NCBI GenBank assembly: GCA_963729625.1
Contig: CAVSOU010000008.1
Span: 288,001 to 352,000, forward strand
Length of the DNA stretch: 64,000 nucleotides
DNA from: an uncultured bacterium
GTDB lineage: Bacteria > Chloroflexota > UBA5177 > JANWHV01
Direction: 5' to 3'
The position numbers were made by a program, and so were the translations under genes. Below are positions 1,452 through 25,460 of this stretch, one piece after another. Each line of letters begins with the position of its first letter. Positions within the stretch are counted from its first letter, which is position 1. The notes below the pieces were generated by a model that was not told the origin of the DNA, did no database searches, and saw only the letters and a list, made by a program, of their open reading frames with translations.

Positions 1452-1522
1452 ATGCTGCCATCCTTCCGCAGATGGAGGCCTCAAGCATGTAGCGGGTACC
1501 CGGTCCCCGCCGGCGGCGCGCA

Positions 1523-2323: not shown

Positions 2324-2370
2324 CCTGGCCCACCCCCATCCGTGGTATCTGTGTTTCAGGAACCACCACT

Positions 2371-2691: not shown

Positions 2692-4186
2692 CCGCGCTCA
2701 CTCCTTCCGCGTCGACACGCCCAATCTCTTCCGCCACGTCCACGTTCTGACCGGTCATGCCGAAGAACAGTCGCATCCCCGTCTCGCGGGAAATCCAGCC
2801 CGCCGCGTTCGCCGCCAGCATGGCGCTCATGATCTGGCTGCCGGCCGTGGCCAGATCCTTGTTGTCGCTCGGCACCAGCTCGGGGAAGATGATCTGGAAG
2901 CTCCGATCCGTGCCGGCGCCCAGCTTGCCCGCCTTGACCGCCTCGTCCAGTGCGCGGTCCAAAATGGCCCGCAGCATCAGGCCAAAGATGTCCTGCCGCC
3001 GCTCGAACTTGCGGAACGTCGGCAACCCCATTTCCGATGCCGTGGCCCGGTTCGTGTTGCCGCCCTCGCCGAGGTAGTGCTCGGGCAAACCGGCCCCCAT
3101 GGCGATCATCATCTTGATCGCCCGGCCGTCCTCCGCCACCTCGTCGGCGTGGATCTGCGGCTGCACCGCTGTCCAGCTCTCGCTCTCGTTATGCACCACG
3201 ATGCTGCCCGGCTCGGGCGCGTAGGCATACTGCATGCGCTTGCGATCGATCGTCTTCGCGTCCGCCCCCGCCAGCTTGATGTCCCAGAGGAAGGCGCCCT
3301 TGTACTTGTTGATGCGCACGCGGTCGGTCAGCCAATCCCGATAGCGGCGCAGCCAGGGCAAGAGTGTGGCCAGGTCGCTCTTGCCGCGCTTGGCGTTGGA
3401 CACCGAGTTGATCTTGAACTGGATCACGTCCTCACCAGCCGTGAACCACTTGCCCGCCATCACCGCGTCACCCGGGTAACTGGCGCCGGTGGGCTCCAGG
3501 GTCGGTGCCGGCGGCTGCACGCCCCCGATCGGAGCCGTGGCGCTCCACATGGCGCCGCCCGGACCGACGGGCCGCTGGTGGAAGCGGATCGTACGCTCGA
3601 TGTTGTCGGGGTCCGTCTCGATCTGGTCGATCAGGCTGGGGTCGATCTGCGCGATCTTCACCGTGCCGTTGAACCTGTTCACGAAGAAGCGGATGAACTG
3701 CTCGCCATAGAGCGAGAGCTCCGTGCAGAGCGAGTACACCCGCGTCGGCATGTGGTTGTCCGGGTCTTCCCAGAAGGCGTCGATGAGCCGCTGCACCTTT
3801 TTGTTCCGGGCCGTCACCGTCACCCCCGTGCCGAGCACGAAGTTCGTCATCAGCTCCACGATGTAGCTGGCGATGGGGTTCGCGTTGAACTGCTCGTAGC
3901 ACTGGTTATGGATTTCCAGGTACGTGCTGGGAATGACGTCCTTCTGGTACCAGTTATCCGAGAGCCGGCGCCAGTAGTAGTCCTCCTCCATGCCGGCACC
4001 CAAGCGGCCCCAGTAGTAGTCTTCCTGCATGGGGAACGTGGCATTCGCCGTCGGGTCCATTTGGCCCTCAATCAGCCGGCGCGATGCCGTGTCGTCAACC
4101 GTTCCGGCCATATTCGCCGCAATCGCGACGCCGAGACGAGTGCGGGGCGCCGCGATCGCATCTTCCTTGGCCCGTCGCGCGCCCAT
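2495..4186 (-). CDS. Phage portal protein
   Basis: Portal-like motifs NPIASYIVELMTNFVLGTGV, LSLYGEQFI, RGKSDL, GLPEHYLG-x3-NTNRATASEM, GWISRET. Start at ATG 4186 after GGGAGG. Confidence 0.85.
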   Translation of the reverse strand: MGARRAKEDAIAAPRTRLGVAIAANMAGTVDDTASRRLIEGQMDPTANATFPMQEDYYWGRLGAGMEEDYYWRRLSDNWYQKDVIPSTYLEIHNQCYEQFNANPIASYIVELMTNFVLGTGVTVTARNKKVQRLIDAFWEDPDNHMPTRVYSLCTELSLYGEQFIRFFVNRFNGTVKIAQIDPSLIDQIETDPDNIERTIRFHQRPVGPGGAMWSATAPIGGVQPPAPTLEPTGASYPGDAVMAGKWFTAGEDVIQFKINSVSNAKRGKSDLATLLPWLRRYRDWLTDRVRINKYKGAFLWDIKLAGADAKTIDRKRMQYAYAPEPGSIVVHNESESWTAVQPQIHADEVAEDGRAIKMMIAMGAGLPEHYLGEGGNTNRATASEMGLPTFRKFERRQDIFGLMLRAILDRALDEAVKAGKLGAGTDRSFQIIFPELVPSDNKDLATAGSQIMSAMLAANAAGWISRETGMRLFFGMTGQNVDVAEEIGRVDAEGVSADAGSNDAQAGGKPAGGDDGDGDDNGTASGRGGAVPGPRAGGHAGTAAGRGRAGTRAVPGGVGNQL

Positions 4187-4201
4187 ATGACCTCCCGTTA
4201 T

Positions 4202-4217
4202 TAGTACGTATGTTCTA
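4202..4217. promoter_or_regulatory. LexA (SOS) box-like operator
   Basis: TAGTAC-GTAT-GTTCTA, one mismatch from TAGAAC-N4-GTTCTA. It lies between the -10 element and the RBS of the portal gene. Confidence 0.7.
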
Positions 4218-4229
4218 TTAATCAAGCCC

Positions 4230-4257
4230 AGCATAGCACGAGAATCATGCTTGTCAA
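4230..4257 (-). promoter_or_regulatory. Sigma70-type promoter of the portal operon
   Basis: TTGACA (4257-4252), 16-nt spacer, TGn-extended TATGCT (4235-4230), in an AT-rich patch. Confidence 0.75.
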
Positions 4258-8178: not shown

Positions 8179-11157
8179 TCAGCCAAGTGCGGCAAGCAGC
8201 AGCTCTGTCTGCTCGAGGTCCTTGCGCGCTCCCAGGCGTCGGAAGATGGCCAGCGCCGCCTGGAGTCGTTCTCGCGCAGAGTTGACATCGCCGCGAGCCA
8301 GCTGCAGCCGGCCGTAGACCGCCAGCAGCCGCCCCTCACCGTGCGGGTAGGCCATCGCATGGGCCAGGGCCAGCCCCTCCTCCAGGGCGTCCGCCGCAGT
8401 CTGCACCGTTCCCTGTCGCAGGGCCACCAACGCCTGCACCCGCAGCGTGTCGACCAGCGCGCGCCGGCACTGCCCTGCCCGCTGCCGCCGCAGCGCCTCC
8501 GCGACCGTGCGCGCGGCCTGCTCGGCATGGCCTAGCTCCAGATAGGCCCAGGCCATCATCGGTAGCACGGGGCTGGTCACCAGCCACTCCTCCATGCCGT
8601 CCCGGTCCAGCAACGGCAGCAGGCGCGCAAGTGCCGCGTCGGGTCGCCCCTGCAGCAGGTCGAGTTCGGCCAGGCAACCCTGCGCTACGCGTTCCGTGAG
8701 GACATTTCCTGTGTTCCGCGCCCTGGCGCTGCACTGCTCCAGATAGCCGGCCGCCTGCTCCCATTCCCCTTCGGCCAGCAACAGACGGCCGGCTTCGAGC
8801 GGCGCTGCGGCATCATAGAAAGGTGCCCGTTCAGGAAGCTCCTGGAAGCGCTCGATGCAGGCGTGTGCCTCGCCCCACGCGCCGTTGAAGAAGGCTTGAG
8901 CCGTAAGCCTGATCAGGCCCATTCGCATAAGGATGGGATCACCAAGCCGTTCACCGTGCGCAAGCGCGCGGGTCGCGTGCTGCCTGGCCAGGTCAAGCTC
9001 GCCCCGTGCCTCGGCCAGCAATGCCAGATGCGCGGCCACCGATCCGGATACTTCGAGATCGCCCTCCGAGTCGGCCAGCGCACTGGCCTCCTGGTAGGCC
9101 GCCACAGCCTCCTCCAAACGTCCCAGCATCAGCAGCGCCCAACCGCGCGCCCACTCCGCCCGGGCGAGCAGCCCGTGATCACCGACCACGCGAGCGACTT
9201 CCGCCGCTCGCGTGGCTGCCGCCAGTCCCGCGGGATACTGCCCTTGATCTAGGTAGAGATTGGCCAGAGCACGGTAGAGCGCGGCCAGGCTCGCGGACGG
9301 CCCGACTGCCTTTAGCGATTCCAGCTGCGGCAGGAGGCGCTCGAGCCCCTCCCCCGGCGTTCCCTTACGATAATGCACGCGCCCGATCTGTGCCACCACG
9401 CGGCCCAGGCCTTCCACATCCCCGGCCAGGCGCAACGCTGCTGCTGCTTGCTCCAGCACCTCCAGCGCCCGCGTGAAGTGGCCGCTGGTGAGCAGGACCG
9501 CGCCCAGCTTCTCCAGTAGCCGCGCCGCCTCGACCGGGCGGCCCAGCCCGTCCAGGCGGGTGATCGCCTCCCGGTAGTATCCTTCCGCGGCGCCATGGGC
9601 CGCCTGGTCCCGCGCCGCGTCACCGGCTTGCTCCCAGTACGACACTGCTCGCTCCGGCACATCGCTGCGCCCGTAGTGGTAGGCCAGCACATCGGGTGGT
9701 GTAGCTTCGGGACGCCCCTCGAGCGCTTCGGCCGTCTGCCGGTGCAGCAATCGCCGCCGCGCCTGCCCCAGGTCGCTCTCCGCCACCTCGCGAATCACGT
9801 CGTGGACGAAGCCGTAGGCGTCGTCGCCCACCTCCTCCAGCAACCCGGCCCGGCAGGCCTGCTCCAGGGCCTCGATCACCTCTGACTCCGGGCGGGCCAG
9901 CACGCCCAGCAATAGCGCGCGCGGCGTCACCCGCCCGGCCACGGCTGCCGCGGCCAGCAGCGCCTGTCCCGCCTCCGGCAGCGCCCGTATCCGCCGCCGC
10001 AGACTCTGCCGCAGGTCCCAGGGCAGGCCCGCGGAGGCCGGCTCCGCACCGCCCTCGCCCTCCAGGCTTCTGGCGTAGCTCACCAAGAAGAAGGGCACGC
10101 CGCCCAGCCGCTGCACCATTTGCGCCGCCAGCGCCGGCGCCACCCGTTCCACATCGCCGCGCAGCGAGGCAAAGAGCTCCTCTGCCTCATGCTCGGCCAG
10201 CGGCCGGAGCGTCCGAAGAGTCACCAGCTGGGCCTCGGCCAGCTCGGCACAGGTGACGGCGAGGGGGTGGTCCACTGCCATGTCCGTGGCCCGGTAGGCG
10301 CCGATCACGCGCAGCGGCGGGCCGGCGGTACGCATGAGCGAGACCAGCAGCTCCAGCGCGTCGGCACCCGCCCATTGCAGGTCGTCCAGCACCAGCAAGG
10401 TACCTGCCGGCCCCGCCACGTTGGCCAGGAATCTGGCCACCGCCCGGAACAGCAGCCGGCGCTCCTGCTCGGGAGAGACGACCCAGTGCGGCAACGGCTC
10501 AATCGGTCCCTCGGCCAGCTCCGGCAGCAGGCGGACCAGCCAGGCACAGCCCTGCAGCTCGGTTCGCAGCTGGTCCGACGACCGGCTCCGCAGGTGCTGC
10601 TCCAGCGCCTCGAGCAGCGGGGCATAGGGCGCCTGACCGCCCTGTCGCTGGCAGCCGCCCGCTAGCACCCCCCAGCCTGCCGTAAGGGCCCGCTGCACGG
10701 CGTGCTGCAGCAGGCGAGTCTTGCCGATGCCGGGCTCCCCGGCCAGCAGGAGCGCAGGCGGTCCCTCGCCGGCCAGGTGCCGCGCCAGCAGACTCAGCTC
10801 CTGACCACGCCCCACCAGCACCAGGCCCGCAGCCTCCCGAGCGGGCACGCTGGCGGCCGCGGGTGCCATCGGCCCCACCGTGCCGGCTGGCCCGCGCCGG
10901 CGGGGCACGGCGGCCTCCAGGGTGGCGGCCTCGTGCGCGTCGAGGCCAAGAGCCTGCGTCAGCAGGCGCACGCTCTCGCGGTACGGCGCCTGCCGCAAGC
11001 CGCGCTCGTAGGCACTCACGGCCCGCACCGACAGGCTGGCGCGCTCGGCCAGCGCCTCCTGCGAGAGCCCGGCGGCGAGGCGGTAGCGTCTGAGCAGCGC
11101 GCCGAACGGCGGCTGCTGCGCCTGGGCATTCGAAGGGGCTGGCACTGACGTCCTCAT
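8179..11157 (-). CDS. XRE-HTH + AAA (STAND) ATPase + TPR regulator
   Basis: FGALLRRYRLAAGLSQEALAERA, Walker A GEPGIGKT, Walker B LLVLDDLQWA, FVHDVIRE, TPR tail. Start uncertain (11157 or 11223). Confidence 0.9.
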   Translation of the reverse strand: MRTSVPAPSNAQAQQPPFGALLRRYRLAAGLSQEALAERASLSVRAVSAYERGLRQAPYRESVRLLTQALGLDAHEAATLEAAVPRRRGPAGTVGPMAPAAASVPAREAAGLVLVGRGQELSLLARHLAGEGPPALLLAGEPGIGKTRLLQHAVQRALTAGWGVLAGGCQRQGGQAPYAPLLEALEQHLRSRSSDQLRTELQGCAWLVRLLPELAEGPIEPLPHWVVSPEQERRLLFRAVARFLANVAGPAGTLLVLDDLQWAGADALELLVSLMRTAGPPLRVIGAYRATDMAVDHPLAVTCAELAEAQLVTLRTLRPLAEHEAEELFASLRGDVERVAPALAAQMVQRLGGVPFFLVSYARSLEGEGGAEPASAGLPWDLRQSLRRRIRALPEAGQALLAAAAVAGRVTPRALLLGVLARPESEVIEALEQACRAGLLEEVGDDAYGFVHDVIREVAESDLGQARRRLLHRQTAEALEGRPEATPPDVLAYHYGRSDVPERAVSYWEQAGDAARDQAAHGAAEGYYREAITRLDGLGRPVEAARLLEKLGAVLLTSGHFTRALEVLEQAAAALRLAGDVEGLGRVVAQIGRVHYRKGTPGEGLERLLPQLESLKAVGPSASLAALYRALANLYLDQGQYPAGLAAATRAAEVARVVGDHGLLARAEWARGWALLMLGRLEEAVAAYQEASALADSEGDLEVSGSVAAHLALLAEARGELDLARQHATRALAHGERLGDPILMRMGLIRLTAQAFFNGAWGEAHACIERFQELPERAPFYDAAAPLEAGRLLLAEGEWEQAAGYLEQCSARARNTGNVLTERVAQGCLAELDLLQGRPDAALARLLPLLDRDGMEEWLVTSPVLPMMAWAYLELGHAEQAARTVAEALRRQRAGQCRRALVDTLRVQALVALRQGTVQTAADALEEGLALAHAMAYPHGEGRLLAVYGRLQLARGDVNSARERLQAALAIFRRLGARKDLEQTELLLAALG

Positions 11158-11494
11158 CGCAGTCGGCAGGCTGGCGGCCGTCTCACGCGAGCGCGCAGGA
11201 CTGGGGCGGCGCTGCCGCCCCATAGGATCAGCGTAGCATCGCGCGCGCAAGAGTGATCGCGTGCGGCCAGCGCAGCCGCAACCGTGTGCGGCAACTGTGG
11301 GGGGCGAGCGTATGGAGTGTGTGTGGGACCCACCGGCCGACTTACCCAGACTGGAAGAGAGAGGCCCGCGGACCACGGGGCCTCAGGGCAAGCGCGGGAG
11401 GACGGAGGGTGGACGCGTACCAGCGTGCTGCGCACGGCATCCGGCGTGCGGTCCTGCCGGTGACGATGCGCCTGCAACCCGCCGGACAGGCCCG

Positions 11495-11956
11495 ATGAAG
11501 TTCTGCGCACTCATTTCTGCCCTTGCCGGACTGCTCGCGGGTGCCGGCATGCACCTCGGCCTGCCAGCGACGTCAGGCCCCGTGTATACGATCGCGCAGG
11601 TGGAGATTGGGCTGTTCCAGAACGCACCGGCCTGGACGGACAGGACCTTCCTGCTCCGCGGGACTGCCGTCCGGTATTCATGCCTCACCGGGCCCTGGAC
11701 CTGTGGTCCGCAGGACTTCCTGGTCGAGGATGCCGGGCCGGCGCCGCCGTCGGGCCCGCTGCCGCTCGCCGGATCGGACCATAACAGCGCGCTCGCCTTC
11801 CTGCTCCGGATCCCCTGGCTGCGTGGCCTGCTGCCCTGGAGCCCGGTGGTGCTCTGGGATGTGCCGGCCACATATCGTGTCCGCCTGCAACCTCTACCCT
11901 GCGGGACGATCAACCCCGGCTGCTACGAGGCTGTGCCCCAGTTTGCGGCACTCTGA
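11495..11956 (+). CDS. Small exported hypothetical protein with four Cys in the mature part
   Basis: MKFCALISALAGLLAGAG signal/anchor; CLTGPWTC and CGTINPGC pairs. Confidence 0.6.
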   Translation: MKFCALISALAGLLAGAGMHLGLPATSGPVYTIAQVEIGLFQNAPAWTDRTFLLRGTAVRYSCLTGPWTCGPQDFLVEDAGPAPPSGPLPLAGSDHNSALAFLLRIPWLRGLLPWSPVVLWDVPATYRVRLQPLPCGTINPGCYEAVPQFAAL

Positions 11957-12656
11957 ACGGGGTCGGGTCCTGCCCAGCCTCGTGCGGTCCCCAATACTGC
12001 GGATCGCCGGTCGCAAGCGGCCTTAACACATGCGCCCAAGTCGTTGTTCCGTTGAACTGCGAGGGCTCGGGCCAACTGAGCAGTGATGTAGCGCGTTGCC
12101 TGTCGTATGCGTATGCACCGCAATAGGCCCGGGTTGCAGGCCGTGCAGCTGTAGACAATAAGCGTGAGCCCGCTACAATGTGACGTACGGATGACGGCCT
12201 TCGGACTGGCCAGCCCCTGCGAGACGCCAGAACACTACCAGCGGCGCATGGCGGTGTGGTCGGCATGACCGTGAACGGAAGCGCGGCGAACGGGCAGTGG
12301 TCAGGAGTGTCTCGAATTCTGGCACGCGTGAGAAGTCCCGGATGCCCTGCGTGACCGGTGTGAGGTCCGTGCTCATGGGGGGCAAGCGGCTGTGGTCGAC
12401 TCGCAGGCGATCCCTACTGATCGATGAACGTGCGCGCCGCGCCCCCTGGGGAGATAGCCTGCATCGTGTCGCTTTCCTTCGCTGGCGTTCGGCGCTATGC
12501 CATCTGACTGCCCGCGCGTTCCCGCCGCGCATCCTCCCCCCGTGTGGGCCATCACCTCCCGCCTCAATGTGCCGGTCCACTCGTCTGCACCGCACGTGCT
12601 CGATATGGTCCGGTCTGCTAGCCTGGTGGAAGAGACGCACAGCCGTGAGGTGAACC

Positions 12657-15600
12657 ATGCCGCCCGTACCATCGCGCCCGTTTGGTTCCCTGCTCAAGGA
12701 GTACCGGATGGCAGCCGGGCTGACGCAGGAGCTCCTGGCCGAGCGTGCCGGTCTGGGCGTGCGCAGCATTCAAGCGCTCGAGCGCGGCCAGAGCCAGCCG
12801 CAGCGTGACACGCTGCACCGGCTTGCGAATGCGCTGGGCCTCCAGGACGATGACCGGGCCCGGCTCACCGCTGCCGGAGCGCCGGCCCCGCGCCGGCTCG
12901 TACCGGCCGGGGCGATCACCACTCCACCGCGCATGGCCAACGCACCGCCGGGCGAGCAGCACGCGGAACCGGCGATCACGCGTGCGCAGGGAGGGCTGCT
13001 CGGCGACGTACTGGCAACAGCTGGCGGAATGCGGGCCTGGTTCCCGCTTGCTGCTCAGGCTTCGCTGTTGGTCGGTCGCGCTCGCGAGCTGGCGCTGCTC
13101 GACCGGCATCTGGCTGGCGAAGGGCCGCCGCTCCTATTCCTCACTGGCCAGCCCGGTATCGGTAAGTCGCGACTCCTGCAGGAGGCTGTGCGGTGCGCCC
13201 AAGTGCGGGGTTGGTGCGTCCTGGCCGGCGGCTGCACACGCAGTGGCGGCCAACAGCCGTTTGCTCCAGTGCTCCAGGCGCTTCAGGGCTACCTCGCCCA
13301 ACGTGCGCCAGCCGAGCAGCGCGCGGATCTGCGCGGCTGCGCTTGGCTCGTCCGCCTGCTACCGGAGCTGGCTGGCACGACCGAGCCGCTCCCCGGCTGG
13401 CAGCTGCCGCCCGAGCAGGAGCGTCGCTTGATGTTCGACGCAGTGCGGCGCTTTCTAGCGAACGTGGCGGGCTCGGCGGGAACCCTGTTGTTGCTCGACG
13501 ATCTGCACTGGGCCGGCGCCGACGCGTTCGACTTGCTGGTCAGTGTGCTGCACCAGCCGCCCGGGGCGCCGCTGCGCGTGGTGGCCGCCGCCCGTGACAC
13601 TGATATCACGCCCGAGCATCCCCTCGGCATGACCCTTGCAGACCTGGCGGAAGCGCAGCTTGTGATGCTGCGGCCCGTACGCCCGCTGGCGCTCCAGGAA
13701 GCGGAGACGCTGTTCGTTCAGCTGTTGGGTGAGCGCCAGCAATCGGGAGCAGCCCTGGCCACGCGCGTGGCACAGTGGACCGGCGGTGTGCCCTTCTATC
13801 TGGTCAGCTACGCCAGGGGCTCGGAGGGCCAGGACGAAGTGGAGAGGTCTTCGCCAGGCGTGCCCTGGGATGTGCGCCAGAGCATCGTGCGGCGGATCAC
13901 TGCCTTGGCCGAGCCGGCGCGGGAGATACTGGCGGCGACGGCAGTGGTTGGGCGCGTGGCGCCACGCGCCCTGCTGCTGGCGGTGCTGGCGCAGCCGGAA
14001 CACGACCTGCTGGCTGCGCTCGAGACCGCCTGTCGGGCTGGGCTGATGGAGGAGGCAGGGGAGGACGCCTATGGCTTTGTCCATGACGTGATCCGGGATG
14101 TGGTGGAGGTCGAGCTGGGACTGGCGCGGCGCCGCGCGCTGCACCGGCAGGTCGCCGAGGCACTGGAGCGCACGCCTGTGGCTGCGCCGGTAGAGGCGCT
14201 CTCGTACCACTTCCGGCAAGCAGGCGAGCCCGCGCGTGCCGCCGTGTACCTGGAGCAGGCAGGCGACCAGGCGGCGGTGCAGTTCGCCCATGCTGCGGCG
14301 GCTGACCATTATCGGGAGCTGGTAACCTGCCTGGAAGGCCAGGGACGTGAGCCCGACCTCCAACGCTCCCGCGAGAAGCTGGGCGGTGCCCTGGTGCACA
14401 TGGCGCAGTACGACGAAGCGCTCGTGGTGCTCGACGAGGCGGCAGGCTCGTACCAGCGGGTGGGTGACCTGACGGGGCTAGCCCGGGTCGAGGCGCAGAT
14501 CGCCGGCATGTTCACCGCAAAGGGTGCCTTTCCGGCAGGTATAGCACGTTTACGACCGGTCGTGGAGGCGTTGGAAGCCGGCAGCCCCTCTGCCGAGAAG
14601 GCCACGGCGCACCTCTGGCTGGCCCAGCTCTTGGTGGTGAATGGCCAGCCGGACAGCGGCATGGCACAGGCGAGTCGTGGGGAGGAGATCGCGCGTGCCG
14701 CGGCCGATCGTCCTCTCGTGGCGCTCGCGCTCGCGGTCCGCGCGCACGCCTGCATGATGGCGAGCCTTGCCGACGAAGCCCTGCGGGCTGCCGAGGAGGC
14801 CGACGCACTGGCTGGACCCGAGGACAATTGGTGGCCATGCCACATGCTGGCCTGGACCTATGAAGAGCGCGGCGAGTACGAGCGAGGCAGAGTGGTCGCA
14901 GAACGCCTGCTCGCACGCGTGGAACGCGCACACGACCTTGTCGGCATCATCCCCACGATGAGCCGGCTGGGTCTGGACGCCTTCCTGAGCGGCGACTGGG
15001 CCGCCGGCCGCGCCTATTTGGAACGCGGCCTGGCAGTCGCCCATCAGCTGGGCCTTACAGTCGGGCACACCTACACGACACCTCGCCTCGATCTGGGGCG
15101 CCTCCTGCATGCCGCGGGTGAATTGGACGAGGCGGCGGCGTACTTCGAGGAGGTGCTTGCTGCCTTTGCTGGCACCGGCGAGCGGCTACAGACACTCGTG
15201 GCCCACGGCCATCTCGCCGAACGCGACGTGCTGGCCGGGCGGCCCGAGGCGGGCTGCGCGCGCCTCCTCCCACTGCTCGACCAGCCGGGCCAGGAGGAGC
15301 GCATGGTGACGCACTTCATTCTGCCGGTGCTTGCCTTGGCGCAGCTCGAGGCAGGCCAGATCGACCAGGCTGCCAGTACGGTGCGCGAGACACTTGAGCG
15401 GGCGCGACTCGGCACATGCCGGCTCCCGTGGGCGCAGACGATGCGGGTGCAAGCCATGGTGCTGCTCGCGCAGAAGCGCTGGGACGAGGTCGAGCAGGCT
15501 GTAGAGGACGGCCTGGTGCTGACACGGAGCATGCCGTACCCGCACGGCGAGGGCCGCCTTCTCCATGTTTACGGCCGGCTGCATGTGGCGCGCGGGGAAA

Positions 15601-15767
15601 CGGAGTCCGCGCGCGCGCGGCTGGAGGCAGCGCTGGCCATCTTCCGGCGGCTGGGAGCGCGCATCGACAGCGAGCGTGCCGAGCACGACCTACGGGGTCT
15701 GCAGCCGCCGTCACACGCCGTGCCGCTGGCCGACACGCCGCCCGGCAAGGTAACTGCGCAGGAATGA
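12657..15767 (+). CDS. XRE-HTH + AAA (STAND) ATPase + TPR regulator, paralog of 8179-11157
   Basis: FGSLLKEYRMAAGLTQELLAERAG, GQPGIGKS, LLLLDDLHWA; GAGGTGA RBS. Confidence 0.92.
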   Translation: MPPVPSRPFGSLLKEYRMAAGLTQELLAERAGLGVRSIQALERGQSQPQRDTLHRLANALGLQDDDRARLTAAGAPAPRRLVPAGAITTPPRMANAPPGEQHAEPAITRAQGGLLGDVLATAGGMRAWFPLAAQASLLVGRARELALLDRHLAGEGPPLLFLTGQPGIGKSRLLQEAVRCAQVRGWCVLAGGCTRSGGQQPFAPVLQALQGYLAQRAPAEQRADLRGCAWLVRLLPELAGTTEPLPGWQLPPEQERRLMFDAVRRFLANVAGSAGTLLLLDDLHWAGADAFDLLVSVLHQPPGAPLRVVAAARDTDITPEHPLGMTLADLAEAQLVMLRPVRPLALQEAETLFVQLLGERQQSGAALATRVAQWTGGVPFYLVSYARGSEGQDEVERSSPGVPWDVRQSIVRRITALAEPAREILAATAVVGRVAPRALLLAVLAQPEHDLLAALETACRAGLMEEAGEDAYGFVHDVIRDVVEVELGLARRRALHRQVAEALERTPVAAPVEALSYHFRQAGEPARAAVYLEQAGDQAAVQFAHAAAADHYRELVTCLEGQGREPDLQRSREKLGGALVHMAQYDEALVVLDEAAGSYQRVGDLTGLARVEAQIAGMFTAKGAFPAGIARLRPVVEALEAGSPSAEKATAHLWLAQLLVVNGQPDSGMAQASRGEEIARAAADRPLVALALAVRAHACMMASLADEALRAAEEADALAGPEDNWWPCHMLAWTYEERGEYERGRVVAERLLARVERAHDLVGIIPTMSRLGLDAFLSGDWAAGRAYLERGLAVAHQLGLTVGHTYTTPRLDLGRLLHAAGELDEAAAYFEEVLAAFAGTGERLQTLVAHGHLAERDVLAGRPEAGCARLLPLLDQPGQEERMVTHFILPVLALAQLEAGQIDQAASTVRETLERARLGTCRLPWAQTMRVQAMVLLAQKRWDEVEQAVEDGLVLTRSMPYPHGEGRLLHVYGRLHVARGETESARARLEAALAIFRRLGARIDSERAEHDLRGLQPPSHAVPLADTPPGKVTAQE

Positions 15768-16684: not shown

Positions 16685-17194
16685 CTGCCCGCCTCCTGCC
16701 CACCGACCCCAACCGTCGTACGCTCCAGATTGGAGTACGCCGGCATAGGGATCAAGCAGGCCGGGCAGTACCGGCTTTTCAACAGGCTGCGCCGATGTCT
16801 CGCATTTCGTGGCCATGACACGGCGCTCGTCGGCGCGGCGGTCTGAGCCGGCGGGGTAGCCTTGGTCGACGCCGCTGCAGTGGGCGTAATCGAGGTGCCT
16901 GGGAACGGCGCTGCCTGGAGTGCGTCGTGGCCGCCCCGGCAACGGTGCGGTCGGCTGTTCATGGGCAGGGCGCAGGTTCGGCCGTATAATCGAGGCGTAG
17001 TGGATGCGCTGACCTGCAGCCCGAGAAAGGGTCCGGGGCCTCCAGCACCGCGAGCGGCGATGACCGCTCCGCTCTTGCTGACGCCGGCCTTTGCCTGGAC
17101 ACCCCTGGACTGCGGCGAGCAACTGGTGAACCTGGCCACGATGGAAGTGTCGTGCGCCGGGTTTGTTCCGCTTGGCGCAGGAAGGGGCATCCTC

Positions 17195-18525
17195 ATGAAA
17201 CGGCTCATGGCGCGCAGTCTCATCCTGGTCTTTGCCCTCCTGGCATCCCTGGCCGTTCCCGCTTCCCACGCCGGCCCCACCCGTGCCGCCATCTCGGCGT
17301 CCGCTGGGAACTTACAGCTCACGGTCAGCCCCAAGACCTCAGCCGCGGACACACCGCTCACGATCCGGATCAGTGGGCTGCGGCCAGGTGCGCGCGTCAC
17401 GCTTTCGGTCGCCTCGGTGGACGCGGCCGCCATCACGTGGGGTTTCACGTCTACGTACACGGCCAGTTCAGCGGGGATCGTGGACCCGGCCACCGCGACA
17501 GCAAAAGGCGGCGTGTCGGCGTACGACGGTACCGACGCCATGGGTCCCGTGGACTTCATGGGATCGGCTGCCCCATTCACGTCGGGCACCGGCCCGATGT
17601 GGCCGTTCGGCCTGCCGAGCAGCTTCTGGACGAGCGCGCATGCGTGGACCAGTTGCTCGCTCCGCCTGCAGGGCCAGCACGGCTGCGTGTGGTCCAAGCC
17701 CCTCAGCTTCACGTTCACCGCGACGAGCGGCGGGGCACGCGCCTCGGTGACGATCCAGCACGGACCCGCGCTCCCGGTGACGGCGACCTACGAGTGCCCT
17801 GCGGCCACCGGCTTCTACGGCGTGTTCTGGCAGCCTCCCGCCGGCCAGGACAACCATGTCGGCATCGTGGCGTTCGGCGGCAACGACGGCAGGCATAAAC
17901 CTCCCGGCCGGCGCCATGCTTGCCTCGCGCGGCTATTCCACCCTGGACCTCGCCTTGTGCGACGCGCCGGGCCTCCCCCAGCACTGCACGGGGCACGTCA
18001 GCCTGGAGTACTTCGCCAAGGCGCTCCGCTGGCTCGGGCGCCAACAAGGCATCGATCCCAACCGTCTTTGGGTCATGGGCGCCTCGACGGGCAGCGAGGC
18101 GGCCCTCTTGCTGGGCGTCCACTACCCTAACCTGGTGCACGGGGTGGTCGCCCTGTCATCCGACGACGCGGCCGAGTGCACCATTTGGACCTTCGGGGGC
18201 CAGTCGGTGCCCTGCACTGGCCTCATACCAGTGGCGAAGGTCCAGGGGCCTGTGTTCCAGGACTGCGGGGAGTACGACTCCTCGGGGACAGACCTGCGAC
18301 CATGCCAGGACAGCCATGGCCGTGCTTGCCGCCAGTCACGACCGCTACGCGCATGAGCTACTCGACTACCCCGATGCCGGCCACGGCATCTGCGACCTGC
18401 TGCCCTACTACCCCGGTGTTGCTGCCGTCGACGCCGCGTGGTTCATCAGCGGTACCAGCGAGGTAGCAAACCCGCTCGCGCGTGCCGCCCAGTGGCCAAA
18501 GCTGCTTGCCTTCCTTCGCGATTGA
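17195..18525 (+). pseudogene. Secreted BAAT/acyl-CoA thioesterase-family hydrolase with two frameshifts
   Basis: Signal peptide; N-domain IRISGLRPG...YDGTDAMG; FGGNDG|GIN; nucleophile GASTG; YPDAGHG. These lie in three frames (extra base near 17891 and near 18288). Confidence 0.85.
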
Positions 18526-18707
18526 CCTTTGATTGCCATCGATCCTGCAGGGCCTACGCGTTCCCGGCCGGTTCTGACAGTCCAGCCGAGCTCACTTGCT
18601 GCTGGTGCAAGGCAGCGCCGGCCAAAAGCGGCAGCGCTGGGCTGACGAGCCCGGTGGTGGGCCGTCCCATAGCTTCCCAGGGCGATGGGACGGCCTACCC
18701 GACTCAG

Positions 18708-19221
18708 TCAGTCGCCGATGGCGACGGCCTGCACGTCGACCGTCCGTGCATGGCTGCTAATCCCGCGCACCATCAGGATCGCAACGTAGTCACCGGGCGT
18801 CCCCTCGACGCGGACCGAGCACGAACACTTTACGGTCACATCGCGGTACATGTAGTCGTCGGTCGCTGTGGCAATCACCAGTGGCGCACGGTCGCCCGTG
18901 AACTGGGGGCCGAGGTGCCACGCATGTTCGGCCCAGTACACACCTCTACTGCGCATGACCGTCGGCGCGATGCGCAGGATGGCTACCGGCCGGTCCGCGC
19001 CCTGTGGGCCGGCTGAGGCTGATGCGACCGGCGTATGCGTCAAGAGCGAACCTCCGGCCAGCGCCCCCAGCAGCCCCGCACTGCCGGCCAATAGCTAGGC
19101 GGCGGCTGGTGCCACCGGCAAGTGAACGACCCAGCACCTGTCGGTGCATTCCGGCATTCTCCCTCTCCAGCGCCTCGACCCGGCGCTGCAACACGGCTAC
19201 GGCCTCGTGGAGCGTACTCAT
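18708..19221 (-). pseudogene. Twin-arginine (Tat)-signal-like protein with one frameshift
   Basis: Coiled-coil start LQRRVEALEREN. Removing one base near 19097 gives TSRRQLLAGSAGLLGALAGGSLL...ASA, continuing into ORF 18708-19091. Confidence 0.7.
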
Positions 19222-19241
19222 GCTCTGATTCTCCCCGCCGG

Positions 19242-19778
19242 TCACTGGATGACCGCCGTCGCCGTGTCCACAACATTCTTCACCCTGTTCCAGCCTGCGA
19301 AAGCCGGTTTGGCGACGTAGCTGCCATCGGCATTTTGCTTGGAATAGGTAATATCCAAGCCGCCATACTCAAAGGTAATCACCTCTCCGGGGCCTTCATC
19401 GCTCTGGGTCCAACTGATTGTGCGCACGGCGACCAGCTTGAACGTGAAGATCAGATAGTCCTGCCCGGCGCTCGTCAGGCTGGAGGCGCCGGAAGCTTTG
19501 CGGAGAGCCAGATCGACGGACTTGAACGGTGTACCGGAGCAGCACATATGAAAGAAAATCGGCGAGTTGACATCCACTTTTCGCGTAATGGAGAAGGGGT
19601 TGAACGTGACCTTCCCCGCGCCCGCACCCGCACTGGCCGAGCCGATATTGAGGATCTGCTCGATGTCAAAGCTGTAGTCGGCTACCTCGGACCATCCTGG
19701 GTGTACGGTGTTCTGCGACTCAGACGTGAGGGTGGTGTCATCATAACGAGTGAAGTTGATATACGCATCGACCGCCAT
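19242..19778 (-). CDS. hcp: Hcp-family (T6SS tube) protein
   Basis: MAVDAYI...SES...HPGW...GAGAGKVTFNPFSITRKVDVNSPIFF..C.SG..F..V.L..RK...EVITFEYG...Y..Q..DG...GWNRVKN; AAGGAG RBS. Confidence 0.95.
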   Translation of the reverse strand: MAVDAYINFTRYDDTTLTSESQNTVHPGWSEVADYSFDIEQILNIGSASAGAGAGKVTFNPFSITRKVDVNSPIFFHMCCSGTPFKSVDLALRKASGASSLTSAGQDYLIFTFKLVAVRTISWTQSDEGPGEVITFEYGGLDITYSKQNADGSYVAKPAFAGWNRVKNVVDTATAVIQ

Positions 19779-20146
19779 GGGTAGCTCCTTCTCCTGCTAC
19801 AGCACGCAACACGATGTTCGGACTTCCAGCATCCTGCACTAGTAATTTGCCTGAAGTTGTTCCACGTCATGCCACTCCAACGAGGGCAGCCACTCGTCGG
19901 ACCGTTGCGCTGCGCTGTCCACCGCCGCTGCTGGAGTGTCCCGCTCATCGAGACGACCGGGCCAGTACTTCGGTGTCGACGTCTGCATCAGAGGATTCAT
20001 TCCACCTTGATCGCCGCAATTCACACGAACCGCCAAAAGGTCCTGCCGCCTGCATCTGGTGAGCGGGCTCATCTTGTGCTACACTGGCGCCGTCTTGGGA
20101 AACAGTTCGCCAGGCACACCGGTCAGAACGGTCGGGGACACAAGCA

Positions 20147-23100
20147 ATGGTCTCGACGTTGCCGCCGCCGGGGGCTCATATCACGTATAGCCGCCAGTTT
20201 CGCCGGTGCGGCAAGTCGGCGTGCGCTACCTGCCGCGAAGGCGCCGGCCATGGGCCGTACATGTACGCCATCTGGCGAGAGGGTGGCAAAGTGCGCCGCC
20301 GCTACCTTGGCGCCGTTGCACCGGCGGAGACCGCGCCCGTGCCCGCGGCCACCCAAACCGTGCCGCTCCGCGTCCGCACGCTCGGCGGTTTTACCGTGTG
20401 GTTGGCAGGGCGGTTGCTCCCGCCAGAGCCCTGGAAGCGAAGGAAGGCAGGCAGCCTTTTCAAAGCGCTGATCGGCGCCTCCGGTTATACCCTGGCGCGC
20501 GAGCAGCTGCTCGAGCTCCTCTGGCCCGAGGCAGATCCTGCCTCCGCCAACCGCAACCTCTATAGCGCGCTGCATGCTGTGCGCGGCATCCTGGGCGACG
20601 CCGGGCGCTTGCTGTCGCTGGAGGACGACGTGCTGCGTCTATCGACTCCTGCCGGCACGGACTGGCTCGACGCATACGCATTCGAGAGCCGAGCCCGCGT
20701 CGCGCTTGCCGAGCGGGACGCGGAGCAGTGCCGGCAGGCTCTTGCTCTGTACCTTGGCGACTACCTGCCCGACGACCCTTACGCGGAGTGGGTGCTCGCT
20801 CGCCGCGACAGCCTGCGAGACCTGTATCTCGCCCTGCTCGTGCATCTCGCCGATATGTGCGGCTCCCAGGGAGAGTTCGCCGAAGCCGAGCAATGTCTGG
20901 GGAAGGTCCTTGCTCAGGACTCCTGCAATGAAGAAGCGACGGCGCGCCTGATGGGGTTGCTTGCAGCGGCAGGCCGGCGTACCGACGCGCTCCGAGTGTA
21001 TGAGGAGCTGACGGCCAGTCTCGCTCGCGATCTCGGCGTTTCGCCTTCGCGCGATCTCGTCGCACTGCGTGCCCGCCTTCTCGCTCAGGAAGCCGTGCCC
21101 GTGCCGTCCGCGCGTCCACCACGGGACACGACGCCCCCACGTCTCACAAACTTGCCCGTCACGCTCACCAGCTTCGTCGGTCGCGGGCGCGAGCAAAGGG
21201 CGATCCGGAAGATGCTGGCTGAAACCAGGCTCCTCACTCTCACCGGCGCGGGCGGCTGCGGCAAGACCCGCCTGGCCCTGCGAACGGCCGATCAGCTGGT
21301 TGATGCGTATGCCGACGGCGTGTGGCTTGTTGAGCTGGCAGCGCTGACTGCGGAGAACGGCGATCGTAACCAGGTGGCACGCGCCATTGCCGCAACGCTC
21401 GGCGTAAAGGAAGAGTCCTCGCGTTCGCTCGCCGCGACGCTCACCGCGTTCCTGGCTCCACGCAGTCTGCTCCTGATCCTCGACAATTGCGAGCATCTCC
21501 TCTCGTTCTGCGCCACATTGGCTGCCACACTCCTGGCCAGCAGCCCGCGTCTGAAGATCCTGGCAACCAGCCGCGAACGCCTCGTCGTACCAGGCGAGGC
21601 GCTCTTTCACGTCGAATCGCTCAGCATTCCGCCACGCGATGCTCCGGACCACACGATCGCCGGCTATGAAGCGGTCGCGCTCTTCCTTGTGCGCGCCCGC
21701 GCCGCATCGGCAGAAGACCTCTCCAACGCCGCATCCCGTCGTACAGTGGCGCACATCTGCCGCACGCTGGACGGTATTCCCCTGGCGATCGAGCTTGCTG
21801 CCGCGCGGGCCAACGTCTACCCAGTGCAGGCCCTCGCCACTCGACTTGACGACTGCTTCCGCCTGTTGACCGGAGGCCCACGCACGGCCTTGCCGCGGCA
21901 GCGAACTCTCCGCGCCACGCTGGACTGGAGCTACATGCTGCTCACTGAGCCGGAGCGGATACTTCTGCGTCGCCTGTCGGTCTTCGCCGGTGGCTGGACG
22001 CTCGATGCAGCCGAGGCAGTTTGCGCTATGACCCCGAAGCAGCGAGGCGGCGCGCCCGGCGTGGCGCCGGATGCCGTGCTCGACCTCACCGGCAGCCTTG
22101 TCGGCAAGTCGCTCGTGCACATTGAGGCGCGCAGTGGCGAAGCGCACTATCGCCTCCTCGAGCCGGTACGCCAATACGCGCGCGCGCTCTGCATGGCCAC
22201 GGATGAGCTATCGATGCTGCGCGACCGGCACCTGGACTGGTACCTTGCCCTGGCCGAGCGCGCCGAGCCTCGTCTCTGGGGTGGCCCCGAACAGGCCGCC
22301 TGGCTTGCCCGGCTAGAAAGCGAGCAAGAAGACTGCCGGGCGGCCCTCCGTTGGGCCGTCGAGCAGCGAAGGCTCGACTCCGGCTTAAGGCTTGCCGGCG
22401 CTCTGCGGCGATTCTGGGATGTCCGAGGCTACGCCGGCGAAGGCGCCGAGTGGTTGGAGACGCTGCTGGAGATGGACGCCGCGACCGGCGTCGGCACGCC
22501 GGCAGCGCGTGCCAAAGCGCTGGTCGGCAGCGCGATTCTCGCGTATACCCTCAATCACTACGATCGCGCGATGACGCGAGCCGATCAGGGCCGCATACTC
22601 TGCCATGAGCTTGGCAACCTGGAGGGGGTCGCCGATAGTCTCAATGTGCTCGGCATGATCGCCAGCGATAAGGAGGATCTCGACGGCGCCAGGAAGCTCT
22701 ACGACGAGGCGCTTGCGCTTTATCGGTCGCTCGGCTCCAAGCGGCGCATCGCCGCAATACTCTGTAATCTCGGCAATATCGCCTATTTTCGCGGCGAATA
22801 CAATCGCGCGATCGAGATGTACGCAGACGCTCTGGATGTGTTCCGCGCCACGGGCGATGCGGTGGCTCTGGCAGCCACGCTTTCCAACACGGGCGCCGCG
22901 CATAGAGAGCTGGGTCACTTCGATCTGGCCACGCAGGCGCTGGAAGAGAGCTTGCGCTTCGCGCGTCGGTCCAGTGCGGCTGTTGAGACAGCACATGTTC
23001 TCAACAACCTGGGCGACGTCGCGTTTCGCGGGGGGCATTACGCTCGCTCAGCTGAACTCATGCGCCAAAGCGCCGAACAGTTTCAGCGCTGTGGCGATAG

Positions 23101-23365
23101 GCGCAACGCGATGGCCTCCCTGGTGGTTCTCTCCGAGGCCTTGATCGGCTTGCACCAGCACGAGCGCGCCGCGTGCCTCACAGGGGCAGTTGCAGCGCAG
23201 TGCGAGGCGCTCGGCATCAGCGCCACCGGCTCCGAATGGAGCGGACTGCAGCGAACGATGGACGCCGCCGCGGATGAGCTGGGCGAGCGGCAAGCGTCTG
23301 TGGCCCGCTCGAGAGGAGGGCAGCTCACGCTCGAGCAAGCTGTTCTCCTCGCACCCGAACTGTAG
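20147..23365 (+). CDS. DUF6788-like + SARP/BTAD + NB-ARC-type ATPase + TPR regulator
   Basis: RRCGKSACATCREGAGHGPY...RRYLG, VRTLGGF, LWPE, LYLGDYL, NLPVTLTSFVGR, GAGGCGKT, LLILDNCEH, LDGIPLAIELAAAR. Confidence 0.93.
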   Translation: MVSTLPPPGAHITYSRQFRRCGKSACATCREGAGHGPYMYAIWREGGKVRRRYLGAVAPAETAPVPAATQTVPLRVRTLGGFTVWLAGRLLPPEPWKRRKAGSLFKALIGASGYTLAREQLLELLWPEADPASANRNLYSALHAVRGILGDAGRLLSLEDDVLRLSTPAGTDWLDAYAFESRARVALAERDAEQCRQALALYLGDYLPDDPYAEWVLARRDSLRDLYLALLVHLADMCGSQGEFAEAEQCLGKVLAQDSCNEEATARLMGLLAAAGRRTDALRVYEELTASLARDLGVSPSRDLVALRARLLAQEAVPVPSARPPRDTTPPRLTNLPVTLTSFVGRGREQRAIRKMLAETRLLTLTGAGGCGKTRLALRTADQLVDAYADGVWLVELAALTAENGDRNQVARAIAATLGVKEESSRSLAATLTAFLAPRSLLLILDNCEHLLSFCATLAATLLASSPRLKILATSRERLVVPGEALFHVESLSIPPRDAPDHTIAGYEAVALFLVRARAASAEDLSNAASRRTVAHICRTLDGIPLAIELAAARANVYPVQALATRLDDCFRLLTGGPRTALPRQRTLRATLDWSYMLLTEPERILLRRLSVFAGGWTLDAAEAVCAMTPKQRGGAPGVAPDAVLDLTGSLVGKSLVHIEARSGEAHYRLLEPVRQYARALCMATDELSMLRDRHLDWYLALAERAEPRLWGGPEQAAWLARLESEQEDCRAALRWAVEQRRLDSGLRLAGALRRFWDVRGYAGEGAEWLETLLEMDAATGVGTPAARAKALVGSAILAYTLNHYDRAMTRADQGRILCHELGNLEGVADSLNVLGMIASDKEDLDGARKLYDEALALYRSLGSKRRIAAILCNLGNIAYFRGEYNRAIEMYADALDVFRATGDAVALAATLSNTGAAHRELGHFDLATQALEESLRFARRSSAAVETAHVLNNLGDVAFRGGHYARSAELMRQSAEQFQRCGDRRNAMASLVVLSEALIGLHQHERAACLTGAVAAQCEALGISATGSEWSGLQRTMDAAADELGERQASVARSRGGQLTLEQAVLLAPEL

Positions 23366-23597: not shown

Positions 23598-25460
23598 ATG
23601 AAAAGCGGCTTGCTGCGAATTGTCCTTGTGACGATCGTCGTCCTTGTGATCGCGCTACCTGAGAGCGTGCTGCGTCCTGGTTCGGCGCCCCAGGCGCACG
23701 CTACTGCCCTCCCGAGCGGGTTGCCGGGCCACTTCGGCATCGGCGTCACGGCCGCCCCAGATAGTACCGGCCTCACCGGCTGGATGCCGAATTCAGGAAT
23801 CGCCTGGGACTATGCGTATACCTACCTCGCCGGAGGCGTCAACACGGGGAGTGGGTGGGAGACCTGGAACACCAGCGGACAGTACCCGCTGTGGTATGCA
23901 CAGAGCGCCACTTCTCACCACTACATCCCCTTCTTCCCCTACTACGATCTGCTGCAAAGCAATGGCGCCTGCGGTGGTTGCGGCGAGAGCCAACGGGACC
24001 TCTCCAATGTGAACAATGCCGGCCTGATGGCAAGTTACTTCCAGAACTTCGCGCTGCTGATGAAGCGGCTGGGATCGGGTACCTACGATGGCATTGCCGG
24101 CTTCGGCAAGACGGCAATCGTGCAGATTGAGCCCGATTTCACCGGCGGCTACGCCATGCAGGCAGTCCTCAATAACGGCCTCTGCTACGGCTACTGTACA
24201 GGCCAGGGGAACAACCCCGCATTCCTGAAAGCGTCTGTCGCCAGTTCCGGAGACGCGGATGTCGCGGCCTATCCCAACACGTTCCAGGGCTTCAACTGGG
24301 CGCTCCTGCACCTGCGCGACCTCTATGCGCCGAACGTGCTGCTGGCATTCCACGTCAGCAGCTGGGGCACGATGCACGACGTCGGCAGCGATTCGAGCAC
24401 CTCGCTCGATGCCAACGCGCTCGGGCAGGAGGCCGGCAGCTTCGCGGCACAAAGCGGCATCACCGGAGTGCCGACCGGCACCGGTACGTATGATCTGCTC
24501 ACCAACGACGTGCTCGACCGCGACGCCGGGTACTACAAGTACGTGTATGGCAACTCCTCCGTCTGGTGGGATCGCCTCAATGTCACCTTCCCCAACTTCC
24601 ACCGCTGGGAGACCTACATCGATGCCGCGCATCTGGCGGCAGGGCGCTCGTTCCTCATCTGGCAGATTCCGGAAGGCAACCAGTACTTCGACACCGAGAA
24701 CAACACCGACGGCCACTATCAGGACAATCGCGCTGAATACTTCTTCGCGCATATCGGCGAGCTGGCGCAGTCCGGCATCATTGGATTGCTGTTCGGGGCC
24801 GGTAACGGCGGCAGCACGGTCCATTGGGACGGCAAGAACGACGGCATTACCAACCCGGCGAGCTTCTGCACGAGCGACGGCATGAGCAGCGGTCAGATCT
24901 GCAACAACCACACCAGCTCGGTGTCGGATGACGACGGCGGTTATCTGCGTATGCAGGCGCAGCTATACTATGCCGGCGGCGGCTATGCGCTCGGCGGCTC
25001 AACACCGACGGACACGCCTACCGCGACAGCCACAACGGTTCCGCCGACGTCTACTACCACGCCCGTGCGACCAACTGCTACCGGCACGCGAGTTGCGCCG
25101 CCGACTGCGAGCGCCACGCCCGCCACGATCCGGGTTACCGTCACAAGCTCCTCGGCTGCTCCGCAACGAGTCGCCCGCGGCAGTACCGAGCGACTTACCG
25201 CGACCATACAGACGAATGTCCGGCTCGGCGGCTCGATTGTCGACTACGAGATCTACAGTGCTTCGGGAGCCAAAGTGTTCCAGTGGTTCGCCACGGGGAA
25301 GACCTTCGCGGCCAATACGCCACGCACGTTCAGCGCCTCGTGGCACGTCCCTTCGAGCCAGGCAACCGGTACCTATACATTCAAAATCGGGATCTTCGGC
25401 TCCGGTTGGGCGCCGATGTACCTCTGGAATAATGGGGCCGCGACATTCACCGTAGCATAA
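23598..25460 (+). CDS. Secreted putative glycoside hydrolase with Pro/Thr linker and C-terminal Ig-like domain
   Basis: Signal peptide; aromatic-rich catalytic-like domain (WDYAYTYLAGG, QIEPDF, DRDAGY, WQIPEGN); PT linker; beta-sandwich tail. Family not assigned. Confidence 0.75.
   Translation: MKSGLLRIVLVTIVVLVIALPESVLRPGSAPQAHATALPSGLPGHFGIGVTAAPDSTGLTGWMPNSGIAWDYAYTYLAGGVNTGSGWETWNTSGQYPLWYAQSATSHHYIPFFPYYDLLQSNGACGGCGESQRDLSNVNNAGLMASYFQNFALLMKRLGSGTYDGIAGFGKTAIVQIEPDFTGGYAMQAVLNNGLCYGYCTGQGNNPAFLKASVASSGDADVAAYPNTFQGFNWALLHLRDLYAPNVLLAFHVSSWGTMHDVGSDSSTSLDANALGQEAGSFAAQSGITGVPTGTGTYDLLTNDVLDRDAGYYKYVYGNSSVWWDRLNVTFPNFHRWETYIDAAHLAAGRSFLIWQIPEGNQYFDTENNTDGHYQDNRAEYFFAHIGELAQSGIIGLLFGAGNGGSTVHWDGKNDGITNPASFCTSDGMSSGQICNNHTSSVSDDDGGYLRMQAQLYYAGGGYALGGSTPTDTPTATATTVPPTSTTTPVRPTATGTRVAPPTASATPATIRVTVTSSSAAPQRVARGSTERLTATIQTNVRLGGSIVDYEIYSASGAKVFQWFATGKTFAANTPRTFSASWHVPSSQATGTYTFKIGIFGSGWAPMYLWNNGAATFTVA

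Follow-up and report, generated by a model that had tools for sequence, protein, structure and literature searches.

A T6SS-independent Hcp cassette with a predicted Tat-exported, lectin-like partner in a monoderm-type genus of Chloroflexota

Hcp is commonly taken as a marker of an active type VI secretion system (T6SS) and is seen as a tube subunit restricted to diderm bacteria. What purpose, then, does an intact Hcp gene serve in a Chloroflexota genome of monoderm type, with no T6SS gene around it? We examined this question in a window of 64,000 nucleotides (G000:C8:288001-352000) from a 5.4-Mb assembly (G000; completeness 87.5%, contamination 5.2%), where the Hcp gene is closely followed by a second small gene, called the partner here (Table 1). 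Five genomes of the genus (G000-G004, G004 being the congener with an intact cassette) and 401 sampled Chloroflexota genomes served for comparison, and individual loci compared carry L-numbers (L053 is G004:C9, L080 is G001:C457).

Table 1. Features of the Hcp cassette and its divergent neighbour (window coordinates)
Feature	Position	Strand	Remarks
Hcp/TssD-family gene	19242..19778	-	178 aa, intact; PF05638 above cut-off
Ribosome binding site and upstream stretch, probable promoter region	19779..19880	-	Conserved in congener (DNA alignment with L051)
Partner, first piece: coiled coil (about residues 3-33) to S-R-R of twin-arginine motif	19098..19221	-	
Partner frameshift, +1 relative to ortholog, within signal peptide	19095..19098	-	
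Partner, second piece: hydrophobic region, A-x-A site, 94-aa beta-sandwich	18708..19094	-	85% identical to G004 ortholog
Inverted repeat directly past partner stop	18660..18695	-	No U-tract; perfect longer stem in G004
DUF6788-BTAD-STAND ATPase-TPR regulator	20147..23365	+	DUF6788 (below cut-off), BTAD, NB-ARC/AAA_22, TPR

The Hcp gene and the missing machine

Profile search gave the window gene 67.4 bits against PF05638 (cut-off 23.5), its closest PDB sequence was Hcp1 of P. aeruginosa (1y12, E 2e-14), and the model of its G004 ortholog (87% identical; pLDDT 81.4) matched the same structure with E 3.6e-13 and TM 0.72/0.80, so that both the PF05638 score and the Hcp1 fold place it in the Hcp/TssD family. 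Its TIGR03344 score of 33 lies below the cut-off of 58.9, and it is therefore not of the Vibrio-type subfamily. The protein lacks a signal peptide, its highest 13-residue hydropathy window being 1.05, and as judged from a dN/dS of 0.148 against the G004 ortholog it is under purifying selection. A strong purine-rich ribosome binding site, AGGAGAAGGAG, stands 7 nt ahead of the ATG, and about 100 nt 5' of the gene are kept in the congener despite a different upstream gene; we regard this stretch as a probable promoter region. A promoter and terminator scan of the cassette called neither a sigma-70 consensus nor a terminator. The partner ATG (19221) follows the Hcp stop by 20 nt, and the hairpin behind the partner is weaker in G000 (-41 kcal/mol, z -4.1) than in G004 (-53.9, z -9.6). 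Since the upstream stretch and this hairpin are both conserved, they delimit a two-gene unit.

The first-pass annotation of this DNA had placed the cassette under the control of the divergent gene upstream. Its reading of the domains of that gene agrees with our matches (Table 1), but the proposed control could not be upheld, as the closest STAND match in G004 (77% over the N-terminal 328 aa) lies on C9 while the Hcp ortholog lies on C10, and G000 holds 31 STAND-like loci, with 11 matches to the N-terminal part of the regulator. On this genome comparison the BTAD-STAND gene is an incidental neighbour, outside the conserved cassette. Elsewhere in the window we noticed a gene resembling BAAT/acyl-CoA thioesterases that begins like a signal peptide, is broken into three frames and converges on the cassette (17152-18525, + strand), two divergent XRE-HTH/AAA_16/TPR STAND genes (8179-15767) around a small membrane-type ORF without Pfam match (11261-11956), a secreted protein of 620 aa that has a Thr/Pro linker and, at its C-terminus, a beta domain and matched neither Pfam nor NCBIfam (23598-25460, + strand), and a run of ORFs labelled by eye as peptidase-like and GH25 lysozyme-like (402-4234, - strand).

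The same annotation had found a full-length Hcp with a strong ribosome binding site and no T6SS genes nearby, had taken it to be independent of T6SS, and had proposed an HMM search of the genome for T6SS and eCIS genes. Carried out on the whole assembly, this search found no T6SS or eCIS structural gene. Profile searches of G000 found no TssC, TssF, TssK, PAAR, GPD, phage base V, phage sheath or gp19, and among its genes VgrG/PAAR spikes, baseplate TssE/F/G/K and TssA were not found, nor were the sheath, gp19 tube, Afp8 spike and baseplate of an eCIS of the Afp/PVC type. TssB, TssC and one TssM-like query (labelled by eye) gave no match to G000 in tblastn. Among 67 tblastn queries taken from T6SS loci and an eCIS locus, only the ClpV-type queries and one non-core query matched G000, the former hitting general Clp ATPases and the latter giving a weak match (cluster-18). 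The Clp ATPase of the window was considered as a ClpV and rejected, its ClpB score being higher than its ClpV score and both under cut-off. TssC (PF05943) was found neither in G000 nor in any of the five genus genomes or the 401 phylum genomes, 18 of which carry an Hcp.

The Frr protein places the host in Chloroflexota, as its 72 matches include six with a named organism and all six are of this phylum; an Atlas search with Frr was uninformative on taxonomy. Omp85 was found in none of the five genus genomes, which supports the monoderm-type host that the first-pass annotation had assumed. The gp19 tubes of eCIS type were detected in three genus genomes (G001-G003), at loci apart from the Hcp cassettes; G000 and G004, both holders of the exact cassette, gave no gp19 or GPD match. 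A complete-looking eCIS was noticed at G001:C457; its genes, in part labelled by eye, code for sheath, two gp19 tubes, LysM, VgrG-like, baseplate, Pvc16-like and ATPase proteins. No resident T6SS that an auxiliary hcp island could serve was found in G000, and the effector-immunity check returned a lectin-like partner with no second small gene after it. Taken together, the gene content of this 87.5%-complete assembly supports a T6SS-independent Hcp; its incompleteness and the gp19 tubes of G001-G003 weigh the other way.

The partner gene, its linkage to Hcp and its probable decay

In G004 the partner ortholog is intact (171 aa), is paired with Hcp in the same way, and begins with a coiled coil, on which follow a twin-arginine signal and then a discoidin/H-type-lectin-like domain. 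Its model shows helices at residues 3-33 and 47-57 and a beta-sandwich at 79-170, with pLDDT above 85 for the domain and about 40 for residues 32-76; bZIP/TSC22 coiled-coil profiles scored weakly on the coil, under cut-off. The coiled-coil start and the 20-nt spacing had been described before and are borne out by the sequence. The SRRxLL signal described with them is present in the intact G004 ortholog, but in the window it can be read only across the frameshift, as the remainder of the protein (LLAGSAG... to the stop at 18708) sits in a different frame from S-R-R. A polar residue, R-R and then hydrophobic residues occur near residue 40 in 20 of the 22 aligned family members, which fits Z-R-R-X-phi-phi, given as the general Tat motif in the available part of PMC13673990. 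The signal region has a hydropathy of 1.75-2.12 in the three members examined, A67 and A69 of the A-x-A site are near-invariant, and TatC was found in all five genus genomes, G000 included. With these features the partner family consists of predicted Tat substrates; the motif of the window copy is split by the frameshift.

The structure search with residues ~78-171 returned, as its top eight VIA rows (Z 6.9-8.0, rmsd 2.8-3.5 A, 82-86 aligned residues), exclusively tailspike or pyocin fibre tips, Helix agglutinin, SLL-2 or discoidin, the tailspike C-domains among the top matches being those of LKA1, AP22 and phi297. Foldseek against the PDB ranked Helix agglutinins first at E 0.008 or weaker, with no match at E<=0.001, and phage 'H-type lectin domain' models ranked high in the BFVD search. 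The best matches of three libraries are thus consistent in pointing to a beta-sandwich of this type, at moderate scores (best Z 8.0). In sequence searches, Pfam H_lectin gave no match at E<=0.1 for eight partners, a PDB search with the lectin-domain profile gave one chance match alone, the first partner member had no PHROGs family and others had weak unnamed matches, and an Atlas search with the partner gave no usable match. Given the moderate fold scores and the lack of a matching sequence family, we consider a lectin-like fold supported by the model, and sugar binding and a trimeric state as suggested by analogy; the tailspike, pyocin, agglutinin and discoidin set is described as sharing a trimeric, often glycan-binding, discoidin-like fold in the part of PMC6363177 available. 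The lectin-like domain has a dN/dS of 0.117 against G004 and the first 36 codons one of 0.86 (few sites), and by this measure the partner is under purifying selection. The family is small: a search of 1.84 billion representatives gave 21 matches at E<=0.001, including several that are weak or fragmentary, and within the phylum sample it occurs in five of the 401 genomes, all of this genus.

The first-pass annotation had made its proposal depend on the pair being linked in other genomes as well, and it is. Ten copies of the partner domain were found in the genus, and five of them (G000:C8, G001:C701, G004:C10, G004:C12 and G004:C9) sit 16-89 nt behind an Hcp. Two more lie about 2.3 kb from an Hcp, across a gene for a secreted protein of 737-754 aa (G002 and G003, the G003 join resting on a 568-nt, 94% overlap between two contigs), one (G001:C60) is cut by the contig end beside the same kind of secreted gene, and the two copies without a nearby Hcp are both broken (G000:C10 and G004:C18). 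A metagenome scan with the partner alignment, a weak one that relied on a single signal-region pattern, gave at least two loci; L078 is the true partner member among the scan matches listed and has the reversed order, partner and then Hcp, while the match of L079 was confined to the signal region and was rejected as false. Five close Hcp homologs and five partner homologs agree exactly in the length of their longest contig, from which they would lie on the same contig, and two predicted chimeric proteins join Hcp and partner sequence. Across the genomes compared, Hcp and partner are therefore inherited together in a monoderm-type genus in which no T6SS was detected. Three or more very different types of Hcp take part in these pairs, their identities ranging from 87% down to 14-27%. 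Similarity of Hcp and of partner correlated with rho 0.73 over all 12 pairs, a value driven by close kin, and for the seven less related pairs the Mantel rho was 0.30 (p 0.11, not significant).

The cassettes differ in their further genes. At G004:C9 (L053 9755-14314) we noticed a single run of genes for a secreted NHL-repeat protein, a divergent Hcp, the partner, a methyltransferase, a tandem double-Hcp protein and a sigma factor of ECF type. The C-terminal domains of the NHL and LCCL proteins from two cassettes resemble each other weakly (E 1e-4). Related methyltransferases adjoin the partner or Hcp in lectin-type as well as barrel-type cassettes (L075 2479-3606; L104, L106, L108, L113); none of them adjoins the window cassette.

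The apparent decay of the cassette in G000 and the lectin-like, tail-fibre-tip fold of the partner are two features that the first-pass annotation did not contain. Both G000 partner copies (C8 and C10) are frameshifted just past the RR motif, while the Hcp of the window is intact. A second Hcp, of TIGR03344 type, was noticed at G000:C11:404439-404750 (L002/L081), its 5' part missing and its start lying right at the end of aroA, and the second, frameshifted partner at G000:C10:294034-294584 matches this Hcp in subfamily. Assembly noise was rejected as the default cause, as none of 65 conserved G000 genes (23,217 aa) was frameshifted and three had an internal stop, in a count that took conserved genes only, by a script run without a positive control. 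The window partner also has the most lineage-specific changes, at 11 of 79 conserved columns compared with 1-9 in eight others. One DNA sequencing run, in which this organism has a low share, yielded contigs from a relative; one of these bridges 19150-19299 without a gap and none settles the frameshift. No RNA run with this organism was listed. We consider recent decay a more likely cause of the G000 frameshifts than sequencing error, and, the partner being frameshifted, the window copy of the cassette probably no longer works.

Hcp genes of other Chloroflexota and beyond

Leaving out the five genus genomes and G018, 12 other Hcp-bearing Chloroflexota were compared with about 1.5 kb of flank on each side; the Hcp of G018 was rejected as a member of the class, as it stands beside a ClpV-like fragment (by eye) on a contig of 4,950 nt. 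In 5 of the 12 the Hcp itself has a strongly hydrophobic N-terminus (hydropathy 2.3-3.2, compared with 0.3-1.3 in 11 signal-less Hcps). In another 3 the Hcp lacks a signal and immediately follows a twin-arginine barrel gene, and a methyltransferase gene adjoins, the barrel being AOC/dirigent-like by weak Pfam scores in two cases and by eye in the third. The remaining ones are one lone signal-less Hcp and three weak or broken matches. Signals of their own, or neighbours of Tat type, are what would be expected of Hcps that work outside the membrane.

The survey of Hcp neighbourhoods which had been suggested earlier found the partner beside Hcps of the genus, but neither in 40 outside Hcp loci nor in 13 loci of other Chloroflexota did the partner profile match. 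The nearest outside Hcps (47-58% identity, near-full matches) belong mostly to alphaproteobacterial tssA-B-C-hcp-tagJ-tssE-F clusters, and 28 of the 40 outside loci carry T6SS genes; four full-length Hcps and one shortened one stand without them. The Hcp tree has long branches and places the window clade outside the clade of 28 outside rows (98/93), and from it no Hcp donor or direction of transfer could be named. A full-length orphan Hcp was seen among genes that by eye resemble a tryptophan operon in three Acidobacteriaceae genomes (L016, L037, L041; ~10001-10564), and nests in the tree among alphaproteobacterial T6SS Hcps. Short peptides that start like leaders (double-glycine or Nif11-type in appearance) and have the Hcp beta-hairpin motif at their end were noticed in an alphaproteobacterial and a Microthrixaceae genome (L044 ~9880-10126, L048 9824-10180), with T6SS genes absent within 10 kb, and five further loci gave similar partial matches.

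How the pair may work

We favour, with somewhat less than even confidence, a model in which Hcp binds the partner, hitchhikes with it through Tat and forms a small glycan-binding ring particle. Folded pairs of this kind are exported by Tat in the case of hydrogenase and formate dehydrogenase, where a signal-less subunit is carried out by the RR subunit. The partner precursor would trimerise in the cytoplasm, with the coil nucleating the trimer, as its closest folds are trimers, and Hcp would bind this trimeric precursor as it binds T6SS cargo or the trimeric VgrG cap. The folded complex would then leave through Tat with Hcp as the hitchhiker, and cleavage of the signal would leave a small particle of fixed stoichiometry, either one ring or a short stack, with glycan-binding heads. 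On the cell surface this particle might serve as an adhesin or bind sugars, in either case multivalently. An Hcp filament of any length is unlikely because each single-use signal could carry few Hcp. Trimerisation, Hcp binding, co-export and surface glycan binding are steps that we infer, and several observations count against the hitchhiking. An Hcp hexamer with a partner trimer would amount to about 170 kDa, which exceeds the largest Tat substrate named in the available part of PMC13673990 ('over 140 kDa'); the Hcp ring is given as 85 A across in PMC13323088. The fold scores of the partner are moderate, and across subfamilies its similarity does not significantly track that of Hcp. A single binding mode is not obvious for Hcps that are about 20% alike; a lone signal-less Hcp and three weak or broken matches occur among the 12 other Chloroflexota; and both G000 partners are frameshifted while the window Hcp is intact. 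On the matter of size, the accessible part of PMC13323088 describes Hcp protomers as being recruited stepwise around cargo, heterodimer first, and subunits could therefore cross Tat before the ring closes.

The same stepwise recruitment (PMC13323088, as far as its available text goes) would suit a cytoplasmic Hcp acting as private chaperone, which wraps coil and signal until the trimer folds, the lectin-like trimer alone being exported. This, the main rival, is an unlikely explanation, though one that avoids the size problem of Tat and accounts for an Hcp without a signal, and the coil, as it precedes the RR motif, would stay on the cytoplasmic side; the binding of the partner by Hcp is putative here too, and the export-like signals that 5 of the 12 other Chloroflexota Hcps carry themselves argue for a site outside. 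Less probable still is that Hcp and partner are co-regulated in one surface process and travel separately, perhaps linked by a third exported protein, Hcp acting inside or leaving by lysis or vesicles. The weak Mantel signal across subfamilies favours such co-regulation without contact, and so do the separate convergent unit of the partner in G002 and G003, where the 737-754-aa secreted gene stands between it and Hcp, and the varied secreted genes (LCCL, NHL, DUF6345) and methyltransferases of sister cassettes; against it, gaps of 16-20 nt are kept in four cassettes, the pairing survives a reversal of gene order, and the window and G004:C10 cassettes consist of the Hcp and partner genes alone.

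That the cassette is a functionless relic, made of Hcp pieces from T6SS-bearing neighbours and now decaying, appears improbable to us. It would account for much in G000, where both partners carry frameshifts, the second Hcp has lost its 5' part, the hairpin has deteriorated and the next gene, the BAAT thioesterase, is split in three, and it agrees with the many lineage-specific changes of the window partner and with the T6SS clusters around 28 of the 40 outside Hcps. A dN/dS of 0.12-0.18 opposes it, as do the intact pairs of G001 and G004 (three), the intact near-linked genes of G002 and the at least three deeply different Hcp types; decay fits the G000 copy and not the family, for which the relic reading is disfavoured. 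The least probable account, and a very improbable one, is that the pair forms an auxiliary island of hcp and cargo whose T6SS or eCIS is encoded in sequence missing from the assembly. G000 is 87% complete, gp19 tubes occur in three of the five genus genomes and G001 has a full eCIS, but TssC was found neither in the five genus genomes nor in the 401 genomes of the phylum sample, the G001 eCIS has tube genes of its own, G000 and G004 gave no gp19 or GPD match, and a Tat signal would make no sense on tube cargo.

A wider form of our model, which we hold to be possible but somewhat doubtful, is that monoderm bacteria reuse the T6SS tube protein as a stand-alone extracellular scaffold, a ring or tube adhesin without sheath and machine. 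Dirigent/AOC proteins, like VgrG, are trimers, and Hcp would be exported either by its own signal or by a trimeric Tat partner which replaces VgrG as the three-fold cap, the partner being lectin-like in this genus and a dirigent-like barrel in other Chloroflexota.

Each component of the cassette has a known counterpart. With T6SS Hcp1 (PA0085, 1y12) the window Hcp shares the family HMM, the closest sequence and fold and the absence of a signal peptide, but here sheath, spike, baseplate and outer-membrane marker were not found, the host is of monoderm type and a Tat precursor is coupled to it. The top structural matches of the partner are discoidin and H-type lectins and related tips, namely Helix pomatia agglutinin (2ccv), SLL-2 (3wmp), discoidin I (2w94), the R-pyocin fibre foot (6cu2, 6cl6) and the LKA1 and phi297 tailspike C-domains (4ru4, 4ru5); it differs from them in its identity of 9-17% to solved members and in that its domain immediately follows a coil and Tat signal, without the shaft of a fibre. 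As in Tat hitchhiker pairs an RR-signal subunit is encoded beside a signal-less one, but the cassette has no cofactor, and the passenger would be a structural protein that forms rings and whose size reaches or exceeds the known range. The Chloroflexota eCIS (G001:C457, L080) is likewise phage-tail-derived and from the same genus, but it has gp19 tubes, sheath, spike and baseplate, lies on another contig and was not found in G000 or G004. Orphan hcp islands and Hcp3-Tce1 resemble the cassette in that the Hcp stands apart from a main cluster and the gene closely linked on its downstream side is a candidate cargo (available parts of PMC13098142 and PMC13323088). What is available of PMC13098142 presents the auxiliary islands as probable suppliers of a resident T6SS, equipped with effector-immunity pairs. 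Here no T6SS was found, the partner bears an export signal of its own as well as a lectin-like fold, and nothing resembling an immunity gene follows it.

In the literature searched, which covers main texts and few subscription papers, the cassette is undescribed and there is nothing on a monoderm orphan Hcp; monoderm cases may stand among the isolated hcp genes that the supplementary tables of PMC13098142 list. Within this scope, the T6SS-independent Hcp cassette is real and apparently undescribed. Calls of hcp overstate the presence of T6SS in such genomes. If Hcp indeed rides Tat, the upper size limit of Tat cargo would be put to the test, and, if the scaffold reading is true, the particle would be a surface structure undescribed in the literature searched; the G004 cassette, being intact and made of two genes, is compact enough to be tested directly in a laboratory host. 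Several divergent Hcps kept under purifying selection, with no sheath and with an exported lectin-like partner, would imply that Hcp has a second job.
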